NCBI GenBank assembly: GCA_029262275.1
Contig: JAJCZS010000009.1
Span: 4,284 to 68,283, forward strand
Direction: 5' to 3'
DNA: 64,000 nt
Source: Deltaproteobacteria bacterium
GTDB lineage: Bacteria > Desulfobacterota_D > UBA1144 > Nemesobacterales > UBA2774
This document shows, one piece after another, positions 22,312 through 48,545 of the stretch. Position numbers and translations under genes: made by a program. The number at the start of each line of letters is the position of its first letter. Position 1 is the stretch's first letter. The notes under the pieces are model-generated. The model made no database searches. It saw only the letters and a program-made list of their open reading frames with translations, and had not been told where the DNA came from.

Positions 22312-22964
22312 ATGATCGCTAAAGTATTTAGCAGTGCAGTTTTGGGGGTGGACGCCTATCTTGTTGAGGTAGAGGTTGATATCGCACTGGGGTTTCCTCA
22401 GTTCGCTACTGTAGGATTGCCTGACGGGGCTGTGAAAGAGAGCAAGGAGAGGGTTAGAGCAGCAATTAAGAACTGCGGATACGAATTCCCACAAAGAAGA
22501 ATCACGGTAAACCTTGCCCCTGCAGATATTAGAAAAGAGGGGTCCGCGTTTGACCTTCCAATATCACTTGGAATCTTGGCGGCCACAGGGCTTATTGATC
22601 ATGAAAAACTCCGTGACTATATAATACTTGGAGAGCTGTCCTTAGACGGCAAAATAAAATCCATAAAAGGCGCTTTGCCTTCTTCAATATGTGCAAGAAA
22701 CTCTAAGCTAAAGGGCATTATTCTCCCAAAGGAAAACGCCGAAGAAGCTGCTGTCGTAGATGGGGTCCAAGTACTGGCGCCGGATTCTCTTCAAGATCTG
22801 GTTGAGTTCTTTGCAGGTAAAAGGGAAATCACCCCAACTACAATAGATATAAAGTCCCTATTCAATCAGGCGAAGGAATATCAGATTGATTTCCACGAAG
22901 TAAAGGGACAGGAGCATGTAAAAAGGGCTCTTGAAGTTGCGGCAAGTGGAGGCCATAACCTGCT
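22312..22964 (+). pseudogene. comM: ComM/YifB Mg-chelatase-like ATPase, 5' half, interrupted by the integrated element (ORF closes at 22980 with an element-derived TMWS*)
   Basis: VGLPDGAVKESKERV, NLAPADIRKEG...FDLPI, GELSLDG and GGHNLL motifs; continues at 48530. Confidence 0.95.
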
Positions 22965-22990
22965 TACGATGTGGTCTTAAAACCACTTAT
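22945..22990 (+). other. attL (comM B arm + CT core at 22963-22964 + P' arm)
   Basis: P' arm TACGATGTGGTCTTAAAACCACT is the near reverse complement of the P arm AGTGGTATTAAGAACACATCATA at attR. Confidence 0.9.
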
Positions 22991-23053
22991 TTTTACCCCT
23001 TCATAGCTATCGTTCAAGAGAGTATTAGACTTAGAAGCCGGCCTAAGTATTAG
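22964..23053 (+). other. cryptic 29-codon integrase C-terminal tail, fused in frame to the integrase only after excision/circularisation
   Basis: attP reconstruction gives ...TSY-LRCGLKTTYFYPFIAIVQESIRLRSRPKY*; frame and stop are conserved in the second copy at 38295-38372. Confidence 0.65.
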
Positions 23054-23184
23054 TTTTGGCTACATTCTCTTATTAGAGCACTAAATAGAGAATATTAGCA
23101 AGGAGCAAGAGGAAACAAATTAAAAATTGTAATTGCTATCGAAGCTCAAAACATTTGATATAAATCAAATTACAAACAATAGCT

Positions 23185-23676
23185 CTATACTAGTGAAATG
23201 ATAAATAAAACTGTAGACAATATGCAGGCTACAGTTCTAACATGATTCCAAGCAGTCCAGTTTAATAGATAGGTTGACCAAAGTTCAGCAGCCTCAACTG
23301 TATCTGGTATTGAACTATCAAGTGTCTTATTCATAGGAACATTATATACAACCGTTACAAGAAACATTCCAATCAGATAGACAAGAGCACCCATTATAAC
23401 GTAAATTGCTCCAGGTTCTCCCCACATCCAAATCATTGATAGAACCAGAACAAGAGAGAGTACTGCTGTTCCAAAAAAAACAAAAAAGAATAACGGATTT
23501 AGAATCTCTTTATTTATTGACTTCATCGATGCAATACCCTGGGGTGGTGGGAGCTTGCTGAGAGCCTTCATTATTGTATTTGAAAATATGAAGAATAGAC
23601 CCGCCATTATCCCTGAACCGACTGCCGATAATAAGACTGCCACAAAGTATATGCTAGCCACTAGATACCTCCTCAT
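23185..23676 (-). CDS. DUF1772 / anthrone oxygenase family membrane protein
   Basis: MAGLFFIFS...NVPMN...WNHVRT motifs; start uncertain (track 23688). Confidence 0.85.
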   Translation of the reverse strand: MRRYLVASIYFVAVLLSAVGSGIMAGLFFIFSNTIMKALSKLPPPQGIASMKSINKEILNPLFFFVFFGTAVLSLVLVLSMIWMWGEPGAIYVIMGALVYLIGMFLVTVVYNVPMNKTLDSSIPDTVEAAELWSTYLLNWTAWNHVRTVACILSTVLFIISLV

Positions 23677-45924: not shown

Positions 45925-45929
45925 ATCTA

Positions 45930-46934
45930 ATGATGTTAGATAAGATATTAGAACAAACTAATCAACTTAGTCAAAAAGAACTAAGACGACTCAATAAATA
46001 TATAAATTCTAAGTTACATCCAGCTGTTGTTTACAAACAAAAACCTTCGAAGTGTGGATGTAAGAAGTGTAAAGAAGAAGGTATAGGTCATGGAATGTAT
46101 TGGTATGCATATTTTACTTATGAAGGAAAAACCCGTTGCATATATGTTGGAAAACAAAAAAGAGAAATTAATCCAATTGAAGAGCTTAATAAAGTGAGAA
46201 CAGATAAAATGAAATGTAATCTTTGTTTAAAAGAAAAGAAACTTCAAAGGAAGTCCCACGTTATTCCAGAATTCATGCATAAATCATTATTTGATGAACA
46301 CCATAAGCTCTATAAAATGGATATTCATAATCCGTCAAAACATAATAGACCATCTAGTGGAGAATATGACCAATACATATTATGTAAAGATTGTGATAGA
46401 ACTATAATAGATAAGAATTATGAATCTTACGCTGCAAATATTTTCAATCAAGAAACAAATGTATTAATAGAAAATAAAAAAACCAAGGACAAGTTGCCTT
46501 TAACATATCTTAGTAATATCGACTATAAGAGATTTAAATTATTTCTCTTGTCTATCCTCTGGAGAGCAAGTATTTCTAAGAGAGAGATGTTTAAAGAAGT
46601 TAATTTAGGTCCTTATGAAGAAACTCTACGAGAAATGATTTTAAGTGGCAATCCTCAAGAACCTAACGATTTTCCATCTATGATTATTGCTATGAGAGGT
46701 GAAGCGGATTGGACCAAAGAATTTATTACACAATTTAAAAAAACAAAAACTCAGAAGATTGCTACGTATTCAGTAATTATAGAAGGATTTCTTATAATTT
46801 ATTATATTGGTAAGAATCTTGAAGGTCCTCCTTCAATTCAAAATTATGTTATCAATAAATCCAATGAAATGATAATACCTCATATACCAAAAGGTAAAGA
46901 AGAATTTTTTGTTAGAAAATACTTGGGATATTAA
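45930..46934 (+). CDS. DUF6788-like Zn-binding module fused to an HNH-like nuclease domain
   Basis: CGCKKC...HGMYWY...YVGK, then CNLC...SHVIP...LCKDCD. Confidence 0.6.
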   Translation: MMLDKILEQTNQLSQKELRRLNKYINSKLHPAVVYKQKPSKCGCKKCKEEGIGHGMYWYAYFTYEGKTRCIYVGKQKREINPIEELNKVRTDKMKCNLCLKEKKLQRKSHVIPEFMHKSLFDEHHKLYKMDIHNPSKHNRPSSGEYDQYILCKDCDRTIIDKNYESYAANIFNQETNVLIENKKTKDKLPLTYLSNIDYKRFKLFLLSILWRASISKREMFKEVNLGPYEETLREMILSGNPQEPNDFPSMIIAMRGEADWTKEFITQFKKTKTQKIATYSVIIEGFLIIYYIGKNLEGPPSIQNYVINKSNEMIIPHIPKGKEEFFVRKYLGY

Positions 46935-46950
46935 AGGGAGCATATCAAAT

Positions 46951-48534
46951 TTGAACAGAGCTGTCATTTATGCAAGAGTAAGTACAGAGAGACAAAGAGA
47001 GAAACACACAATTGATTCTCAGCTTTCAGTTTTACCTGAAGTTATTAATCAGAAAGGTTATAAACAAACTTTAGTACCTTATATTGATGATGGTATTTCA
47101 GGTGAAACTATTGATGAAAGACCAGCCATGATAAAGCTCTTAGAGGATGCTGAAAGTGGTTTATTTGATGCAGTATTCGTGGTTGATATAGATAGGCTTA
47201 CAAGAGCCAGAAAGTCTATTGACTGGGAATTTATAAAAGACTCTCTCCGTAAGGGTAACGTAAAGGTTGTTACACCTAGTCAAGAATATGATTTCGAAGA
47301 TGAAGACCAAGAATTTATGTCTGACTTATTCAGTACTATTTCAGGTTACGAGAAAAAGAAAATAATTCGTAGGTTGATGAGAGGCAAAAAAGAGAAAGCC
47401 AAACAAGGAAAGTTCTTTGGTGGGAAATCACCCTACGGTTATACATACGATGAAGAAACTAAAGAATATGAAATAGTCAAAGAAGAAGCAAAAGTAGTGA
47501 AACAGATATTTGAATTATATTTACAAGGCTATGGTGTTAAGCAAATACCTGAACAACTAGATAAGTTAGGCATACCAACCCCTACTCTTACTAAAGGCTA
47601 TAAAACCAAAAATGATAATAAGAATAAATGGGCTGGTTCTACAATAACAAGAATCCTTAAAAATAAAGCTTATGCAGGTGAGTTTATACGTTGGACTAAT
47701 AAAAGGTTTAATAGAACATCCATGACTATAAGACAAGATGATGAATGGATTATTACTGATATACCAAAAATTATAAGCATAGAGACTTTTGAAAATACTC
47801 AAGAAGTTTTAAAGAATCGTAGAGTACTATCTAAGAGAAATTCTAAAAGAGAATATTTACTAAGTGGTCTCATTCACTGTGAATCATGCGGATGTAAAAT
47901 GATAGGTGAATGTAGTAGAGGCTCTAAAGAACTTCTTTACTATGTATGTCATAACGGTAGACGTAAAACTTTAGATATACCTTGCCCCATAAGGAGTATA
48001 AGAGCTGAGGAAATCGAAAATGCTGTATGGCAAGAGATAAAGTATCTTCTGAAAACACCTGAACTTCTAAAGAAAGCAATACTGGAATCTAAAAACACAG
48101 ATCATTCAAATCACAAAATAGAAGATTTAAGAGATAGACTCAAAGATAAAGAGGATGAAGAAGAAAGACTGTTAGACCTTTATCAACATGGTTCTATCGA
48201 CAGAGAGAAACTAAATAATAGAATTGAAAAGCTAAACAAAGAAAAAACACACATTAAGGATCGAATAGAAGCTCTTATTGAAGAGAATAAAATTGATACA
48301 AGGTTGATGAGTATAAATGAACTTAAATTCGAATTAGAAGCCGATATTGACTCATTTAAATATCAAGAGAAAAGAAATGTACTTGAAATACTTTTAACTG
48401 GGTCAAATGAAGTAGGAGTGTTTGTTAGCTCAGACTATTCAGTAGAAATTCATGGATTAATAGATTTTTCAAAATTCAATAATAACAGCAAGTTAGATAA
48501 ATGTAGTGGTATTAAGAACACATCATACTCATGA
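46951..48534 (+). CDS. large serine recombinase (integrase)
   Basis: YARVST catalytic motif, [27 protein letters not shown] Zn ribbon, coiled coil; TTG start after GGGAG (track starts at 46909). Confidence 0.95.
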
Positions 48535-48545
48535 TAGGAAGTCCC
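48505..48545 (+). other. attR (P arm + CT core at 48528-48529 + comM B' arm), overlapping the integrase 3' end
   Basis: AGTGGTATTAAGAACACATCATA-CT-CATGATAGGAAGT. Confidence 0.9.

Follow-up and report, generated by a model that had tools for sequence, protein, structure and literature searches.

A composite genomic island in comM of a Candidatus Dadabacteria genome, probably integrated by its own large serine recombinase

Structure of the insertion

In the stretch of DNA analysed here, 64,000 nucleotides of contig JAJCZS010000009.1 (assembly GCA_029262275.1, positions 4,284 to 68,283; hereafter the window), the competence-related gene comM is split by an island of 25,565 bp. We consider it probable, at roughly 85%, that this composite island was integrated into comM by the large serine recombinase (LSR) that it encodes, in a member of Candidatus Dadabacteria and about 8 kb from dnaA. 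The disrupted target is a YifB/ComM gene for a Mg-chelatase-like AAA+ helicase involved in DNA uptake, with ChlI, Mg_chelatase and Mg_chelatase_C domains distributed over two halves that the window sequence separates between 22964 and 48530. The features concerned are as follows.

22303..22964, + strand: comM N-terminal half, with PF13541 ChlI and Mg_chelatase profile positions 1-27; protein to ...GGHNLL
22940..22990, + strand: attL, consisting of the B arm GGCCATAACCTG, the CT core (22963-22964) and then TACGATGTGG
46951..48534, + strand: LSR integrase, 527 aa from TTG at 46951; reading frame open from 46909
48503..48555, + strand: attR, with upstream letters AACACATCATA, the CT core (48528-48529) and the B' arm CATGATAGGAAGTCCC
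48531..49406, + strand: comM C-terminal half, 291 aa from the native Met222 codon; Mg_chelatase and Mg_chelatase_C

Only the two base pairs CT are common to both junctions; the flanking letters differ, and there is no longer direct repeat. In a longer reading, the left junction is GGCCATAACCTG-CT-TACGATGTGGTC, with the P' arm TACGATGTGGTCTTAAAACCACT, and the right junction is AAGAACACATCATA-CT-CATGATAGGAAGTCCC, with the P arm GTAGTGGTATTAAGAACACATCATA, which codes for the conserved integrase end GIKNTSY. With one CT counted, the island occupies 22965-48529. Its excision in silico joins 22303-22964 to 48530-49406, yielding a stop-free, in-frame sequence of 1539 nt that encodes 512 aa, and rebuilds attB as GGCCATAACCTG-CT-CATGATAGG. 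The core bridges the codon of Leu221 and the base that opens the following codon, just 5' of Walker A. The insertion parts the ChlI/Lon-like domain at the N-terminus from the ATPase core. The C-terminal half contains Walker A (GSPGTGKT), the AAA+ core and the lid, and the reading frame of the N-terminal half continues into the island up to a stop at 22980, adding TMWS.

The cut is exact, since the two halves meet at one position of the Pfam Mg_chelatase profile, of which positions 1-27 fall on the N-terminal half and 27-206 on the C-terminal half (1.3e-84). The joined ComM aligns without gaps to 14 orthologues over 511 columns, and is 91-94% identical to intact ComM in four genomes of the same genus. 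Moreover, an empty site is present in a metagenome contig of this genus (L031), where the sequence AACCTGCTCATGATAGG equals the rebuilt core and both flanks are syntenic. The rebuilt attP (GTAGTGGTATTAAGAACACATCATA-CT-TACGATGTGGTCTTAAAACCACTTA; joint AACACATCATA-CT-TACGATGTGG) is dyad-symmetric around CT, with 20 of 25 positions complementary and 17 of 20 in the inner arms. This match is beyond chance (about 1e-7 at a pre-specified position, by our own binomial estimate) and is an independent sign that the boundaries are correct.

The rebuilt protein carries a single private substitution at otherwise invariant columns, compared with zero to four in most intact orthologues, and its ratio of nonsynonymous to synonymous substitution rates (dN/dS) is 0.02-0.04, the same as between intact pairs. 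Because interspecies dS is saturated, the undecayed state of comM says only that the insertion is young relative to speciation, and dN/dS was discarded as uninformative for dating it. The initial annotation of the window, made from its letters alone, had described a 25.6-kb element splitting comM, with CT at 22963-22964 and 48528-48529, a rebuilt attB, otherwise open comM halves and an excision that restores the gene. The letters are as claimed, the restoration is exact in silico, the halves have not decayed, and comparison with relatives, which that annotation had suggested, revealed both intact comM and the empty site described above.

The integrase has an N-terminal Resolvase domain (PF00239, 1.5e-27, profile positions 1-144 of 145) followed by full-length Recombinase (PF07508, 3.3e-19) and Zn_ribbon_recom (PF13408, 1.7e-14) domains. 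Its closest solved structure is SprA of SPbeta (E 3e-27 over residues 14-489), and the YARVSTERQ motif and the arginines of DRLTR are conserved in an alignment of 18 homologues. The domain composition and the SprA alignment identify it as an LSR and CT as the 2-bp crossover core, at which the enzyme would have recombined attP with attB. With its three domains, conserved residues and a length equal to that of integrated homologues, the integrase is indeed intact in appearance, as had been noted earlier. No directionality factor was recognised among the island genes examined.

Recurrent insertion into comM

The nearest integrases found among 5.8 billion proteins form a small clade with 41-80% identity (lineage A). 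Six of their genomic contexts were examined.

L023, integrase 63% identical: adjoins a 291-aa comM C-terminal half at the same CT, with the ATGA overlap of integrase stop and comM start described below
L024/L030, 59%: arrangement as in L023
L032, 61%: arrangement as in L023
L021, 57%: adjoins the comM N-terminal half, in the opposite orientation
L034, 53%: adjoins the comM N-terminal half, in the opposite orientation
L033, 60%: not at comM

The same comM dinucleotide is thus used by this lineage in at least five other elements, whose integrases are 53-63% identical and whose cargo differs. The whole element of L030, about 20.8 kb as estimated from gene coordinates, carries Lamassu-like defence genes and a primase; its attL reads GGACATAATCTG-CT-TACATTATAG and its attP dyad matches at 22 of 27 positions by our own count. 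The junctions of L021 (11520-11600) and L034 (11530-11640) have the form P arm-AG-reverse complement of the B arm. As read from these junctions, whose far ends were not recovered, the attP core of both would be AG rather than CT, suggesting sister lineages that use the same dinucleotide in opposite polarity.

Inserts without a recombinase also occupy this position (site 1). Genome G044 (L035, C6:464000-474000) has a 6.1-kb insert with lineage-A-like P and P' arms and a 9-nt stretch, CACAACGTG, duplicated at its attL. No recombinase is present in this insert, which has just two open reading frames (ORFs), of 1252 and 651 aa; neither matched a Pfam family significantly, two sub-threshold matches being found on the larger one. 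The insert is a deletion remnant or else a passenger that is non-autonomous. Genome G019 has an intact comM (C9, L009) and a 98%-identical 1.3-kb variant (C8, L018) that ends exactly at the site-1 core and is followed by an IS3-like transposase, indicating that strains with an insert coexist with strains lacking one.

A second LSR lineage, only 25-27% identical to the window integrase, adjoins the comM C-terminal half in four genomes. The core at its junctions (AGAAGGCTC-CC-TTCTATTCT) is CC, belongs to the Pro236 codon and lies 42 bp downstream from site 1; this lineage has a palindromic attP of its own. The loci of this second site (site 2) are:

G006:C4 (L013)
G014:C1 (L014/L015)
G001:C1 (L020)
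G010:C5 (L016/L017)

The two halves of comM in G010 are on opposite strands, i.e. the locus has been rearranged. As in the window, the split comM of G006 and G014 has the low dN/dS of intact pairs.

We surveyed comM in 33 species genomes of the family. It is intact in 16, broken in about nine and a pseudogene in one (G023), so that about one third of the species genomes having comM carry a broken copy. Breaks at site 1 are clear in G000 and G044; G013 and G048 show only a C-terminal half starting at residue 221. Breaks at site 2 account for four genomes, and G019 has both the intact gene and the broken variant. The decayed or integrase-less inserts of relatives (G044, the G019 variant and the G023 pseudogene) indicate that the disruption is often permanent. 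The pattern extends to protein collections: the cluster of the N-terminal half at 90% identity has 67 members, many of them 220-269 aa long and several named Candidatus Dadabacteria. The nearest named ComM homologues agree with this and so identify the phylum of the host.

Outside this group the integrase has few relatives. It is less than 30% identical to any phage integrase in INPHARED (GenBank phage records), reaching about 27% at most with phage LSRs, and a search of IMG/VR returned only relatives with 25-27% identity. A scan of GTDB genomes with the single integrase sequence found nothing, and a profile scan found a relative in only one other species genome, a metagenome-assembled genome (MAG) of Ignavibacteriales, which belong to another phylum. 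This genome (MAG185, JBLNAE01; L026-L029) has four lineage-A integrase copies, 49-63% identical, at least two of which are split into several frames; no comM was found within 4 kb of them.

Composite architecture and cargo

The island consists of a 14-kb left module that keeps the P' end and a 10-kb right module with the integrase, joined through an insertion sequence (IS) of the IS3 family.

23054..37009, no strand assigned: left module, cargo without a recombinase; GC 35-40% to about 32 kb, then 29-38%
37010..38292, - strand: IS3-family insertion sequence, with orfA at 37936-38214, orfB at 37067-37909 and ends TG...CA
38295..38372, + strand: truncated second P' arm and tail, 82% identical to 22976-23053, without core and inner arm
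38373..46934, + strand: right module, backbone of the active element; GC 28-42%, mostly 28-37%
38489-39382, right module: glycine-rich IPTL-CTERM protein
40501-41271: weak Rep_1-like protein (E 0.008, below the cut-off)
41441-41731, - strand, right module: XRE repressor
42426-42860: umuD
42857-44119: umuC
44193-45668: Schlafen/AlbA_2-HATPase_c_4 protein
45930-46934: ORF of 334 aa, the first 88 aa DUF6788-like

The IS3 element is not flanked by a target-site duplication (TTCA versus CCCT). Directly to its right lies the second copy of the P' arm, which marks the left end of the right-hand element. The internal junction has been removed, and one attL/attR pair remains. Judging from this arrangement, the simplest history would be a former tandem of two related elements, in which one integrase and the internal junction would have been lost through an IS3-associated deletion. 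Between the left end and the right module, the distal P' differs at one of 24 nt, and the surviving integrase should therefore still recognise the left end.

The cargo of the left module comprises an anthrone-oxygenase-like protein, an NmrA-like protein, a GNAT protein, a pentapeptide protein, a metallo-β-lactamase (MBL) hydrolase, two cytochromes P460, an Lcl_C protein, a cupin, a DUF4142 protein, a cupredoxin, a sigma54 activator, a STAS protein, an extracytoplasmic function sigma factor, a YHS protein and a TetR regulator. No other lineage-A element has any of them. At 26609-29488, two different cytochrome P460 genes flank the gene of the Lcl_C-domain protein and adjoin the MBL hydrolase, forming a mobile redox cargo. 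By contrast, the XRE repressor, umuDC and the DUF6788-like domain of the right module are shared with the elements of L030, L021 and L023. The DUF6788-like zinc-ribbon domain (67-69% identical over 88 aa) lies just 5' of the integrase in the window, in L021 (9729-10004) and in L023 (9540-9854). In the window it is fused to 245 aa matching phrog_19960. The DUF6788-like protein is a candidate integrase partner or directionality factor.

Twenty-nine island ORFs and the two comM halves were compared with Pfam, and ten right-module ORFs with PHROGs. No capsid, tail, terminase or lysis genes were detected in these scans, the only PHROG matches being a repressor, UmuD, a polymerase, a helicase-like protein and the integrase, and a prophage was accordingly rejected. 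Among ORFs of at least 90 aa there are no relaxase, coupling protein or type IV secretion genes; with nothing beyond the sub-threshold Rep_1 match, an integrative and conjugative or integrative mobilizable element was rejected as well. A Tn7-like island of the AbaR kind was discarded because the scans detected no Tn7 genes, 2 bp are common to the junctions and the element has a serine recombinase. Being neither a prophage nor a conjugative element, the insert is best described as a small integrative island in which a rolling-circle Rep-like gene is at most weakly indicated. Among the island proteins, PADLOC returned only weak partial matches, for the Schlafen/AlbA_2 protein, and no recognised defence system.

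Genomic surroundings

Genes for DnaA, DnaN, a ComF-like protein and a PilN-like protein are consecutive at 56757-62046, 8-13 kb downstream of the split gene. The distance of about 8 kb between the comM locus and dnaA places the island near the presumed origin, and the comF-like gene, which encodes a double zinc ribbon and a phosphoribosyltransferase, bears out the earlier remark that comF lies near oriC. The minimum of the cumulative GC skew (about 29-30 kb) falls within the island, owing to the orientation of the genes there. ComEC and DprA are intact in the genome.

At ~51987-52139, the last ~48 codons of comM occur again in decayed form, interrupted by stops, downstream of genes for a twin-arginine-signal MBL-like hydrolase and for CobW (49505-52037). 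This hydrolase/CobW cassette is missing from the empty-site contig L031, and a comparable comM remnant is present in L023 (12598-12822).

The integrase C-terminus and the attachment site

The conserved C-terminus of the integrase, GI.NT[ST][YF], is encoded by the P arm, which places attP inside the integrase gene. In the integrated form the 527-aa protein ends with ...NTSY-S, one residue past the core, its TGA stop (48532-48534) being provided by the Met-Ile codons of comM beyond the core. In the excised circle the frame would continue for 29 residues (LRCGLKTTYFYPF...), giving a 555-aa protein. The P' ends available for comparison are listed below.

22965..23053, + strand: P' arm and 29-codon integrase continuation, LRCGLKTTYFYPFIAIVQESIRLRSRPKY followed by a stop
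Window copy 1, tail: LRCGLKTTYFYPF... (in silico junction translation)
Window copy 2, tail: ...LKTTHFYPF...
L030, tail: LHYRHYNGIYFPF..., with [YF]PF at the same distance from the core
G044, tail: LRYSQKSTIVFPFF... (hand translation of the G044 attL sequence)

The tail, 20-29 aa long, has a conserved [YF]PF motif that is retained in all four P' ends (two in the window, L030 and G044) with synonymous third-position changes. The codons of the motif (FPF) are located beyond the palindrome, about 29-37 nt away from the core, and the similarity between the two window copies ends exactly at a shared TAG stop codon. This conservation, in what are only four sequences, suggests that the tail is translated, and only in the excised state. 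According to our reading of the sequences, the frame of the unrelated site-2 integrase likewise extends across the core of that lineage.

The integrase stop overlaps the ATG of the comM C-terminal half (ATGA, 48531-48534), and the same overlap is seen in L023, L024 and L032. Translational coupling to the integrase could therefore yield a ComM fragment of 291 aa that has only the ATPase part. That the integrase exists in two state-specific forms, with the exchange of tails serving as a possible directionality or stability device and the coupled ComM fragment possibly being expressed on purpose, is an idea which we consider unlikely.

In the integration-dependent immunity of mycobacteriophages, reportedly described by Broussard and colleagues in 2013, attP likewise lies within an ORF and integration changes the encoded C-terminus. 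The gene there is a repressor, the integrase is a tyrosine recombinase and the tail removed is a degradation tag, whereas in the window the gene is that of the serine integrase itself.

Excision, fixation and regulation

Excision would need the integrase together with a directionality factor, and would restore comM exactly. Excised forms were sought in several collections: the attB and attP joints are absent from the genome's own 47 contigs, the exact attP and attB junction strings had no matches in JGI metagenome contigs, and the exact rebuilt ComM and the circle form of the integrase are absent from a collection of 15 billion proteins. Whether the island is still excisable or fixed is a matter of roughly even odds.

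It is quite possible, if not the reading we favour, that the island is a fixed remnant, integrated by the LSR but no longer excisable, in which case comM would be permanently inactive and its intact look would reflect a recent insertion. The IS3-associated deletion has taken the internal junction and the recombinase of the left module, the gene of the candidate partner is fused, the integrated integrase does not have the 29-aa tail encoded across attP, and integrase-less inserts do exist in relatives; the failure to find excised forms in assemblies, metagenome contigs and proteins fits as well. However, assemblies rarely catch rare excision products, which makes their absence weak evidence. 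In addition, compared with integrated homologues, the integrase ORF has its full length and is conserved, and the P and P' arms still match at 20 of 25 positions, with the one mismatch in 24 nt of the distal P' noted above.

A reversible regulatory switch (active lysogeny), raised as an inference in the initial annotation, appears decidedly improbable. In such a switch, which would be similar to the Listeria comK prophage or to SPbeta/skin of Bacillus, excision under defined conditions would rebuild comM and re-enable natural transformation, followed by reintegration or loss. We know of no demonstration of transformation in Candidatus Dadabacteria, an uncultured phylum, and this counts against the switch. 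Several observations would suit such a switch: comM is restored exactly and in frame in silico, the integrase and both attachment sites are intact, the comM halves are undecayed here and in the split-comM relatives G006 and G014, the genome has ComEC, DprA, comF-like and PilN-like genes, and SprA of SPbeta, the closest solved relative of the integrase, works in such a way. Against these stand an island that bears IS3 and a deletion scar, a directionality factor that was not found, with the conserved DUF6788-like partner fused to an extra 245 aa, and the lack of attB or attP junctions in the assemblies and protein collection searched. Relatives have integrase-less or decayed inserts at the same site, and two unrelated LSR lineages converge on comM, as expected of parasitic targeting. 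Besides, ComM is not strictly essential for transformation (PMC12378983).

That the contig wrongly joins comM fragments to foreign DNA is scarcely credible: the MAG is in 47 contigs and GC differs between the right module and the flanks, yet both junctions are canonical for LSRs in having one 2-bp core in common and P and P' arms that match each other, this architecture is found again in separately assembled data from other samples, and the proteins were also recovered by the separate assembly of Logan, which has the integrase on a 12.5-kb contig.

Taken together, integration of a composite island by its LSR accounts best for the data, and selfish targeting is a more economical explanation of the choice of comM than a switch. 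The gene would mainly serve the element as a conserved, non-essential landing site, and its disruption may block removal of the element through transformation. Since the XRE repressor faces an operon that runs through umuDC to the integrase, any excision would probably belong to the element's own induction cycle rather than to a competence switch programmed by the host. Several points weigh against these conclusions. Recombination between attP and attB by this integrase is predicted from sequence, and a tandem of two LSR elements is unaccounted for by canonical attP x attB recombination. Selfish targeting is deduced from the distribution of inserts and is compatible with occasional benefit to the host; the undecayed halves, a test of low power given saturated dS, also fit selection for a restorable gene. 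Finally, the MAG source leaves a residual chance of a chimeric contig.

Comparison with known systems

Insertion of LSR elements into comM/Mg-chelatase genes is already known, and enzymes of this family ordinarily act by this mechanism. The Mg-chelatase/ComM gene family is the target of 12.4% of site-specific LSRs, and competence genes are enriched among targets (Durrant et al. 2022, PMC10083194). As in those elements, the LSR of the window lies at the element edge, the insertion is in the coding sequence of the same gene family with a 2-bp core, and several divergent LSR clusters converge on one gene; the window differs in its Candidatus Dadabacteria host, its distinct integrase lineage and its composition from two elements. 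The sr1WO recombinases of phage WO integrate in the Mg-chelatase gene of Wolbachia (PMC9203015). There, too, an LSR element sits in the host Mg-chelatase gene with gene halves on both flanks, and rearranged copies exist. Phage WO, however, is a tailed phage, whereas no structural or lysis genes were detected among the island ORFs scanned.

Mobile elements occupy comM in many Gram-negative species, and the resulting block to transformation is argued to avoid removal of the element (Croucher et al. 2016, PMC4774983; a 2025 review, PMC12378983). Croucher et al. list integrase-bearing comM elements in Aggregatibacter, Acinetobacter, Mannheimia, Francisella and Pseudomonas. The initial annotation had called comM a recurrent target of mobile elements, which these sources support together with PMC10083194, and had named AbaR islands as an example. 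The latter holds in so far as the same gene is disrupted and the proposed rationale, as for the other comM elements, is self-protection from removal by transformation. The mechanism differs, and because AbaR islands are Tn7-like transposons and the present island is an LSR element, the likeness is functional only. The Tn7-like islands in comM, AbaR included, have transposition genes of the TnsABC type and a 5-bp target duplication.

In SPbeta (SprA/SprB, spsM), skin (SpoIVCA, sigK) and the A118-like comK prophage of Listeria, excision has been shown, is linked to a host programme and has known directionality factors. As in these systems, the LSR element of the window splits a host gene that is rebuilt exactly on excision, here in silico.

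As comM is already documented as the commonest site-specific LSR target, the island adds little in kind. It does extend the pattern to Candidatus Dadabacteria, where two unrelated LSR lineages, with cores 42 bp apart on either side of Walker A, are clear natural evidence of convergence on this gene. The elements also offer well-defined natural attP/attB pairs, including those of sister lineages that apparently insert at one and the same dinucleotide but in inverse orientation (CT versus AG), and a testable case of an integrase C-terminus dependent on integration state. Regulated competence in Candidatus Dadabacteria would receive its first hint if excision turned out to be conditional. Compared with the systems known so far, the main value of the window thus lies in the family picture, in which two LSR lineages saturate comM in Dadabacteria, and in the putative state-dependent end of the integrase.

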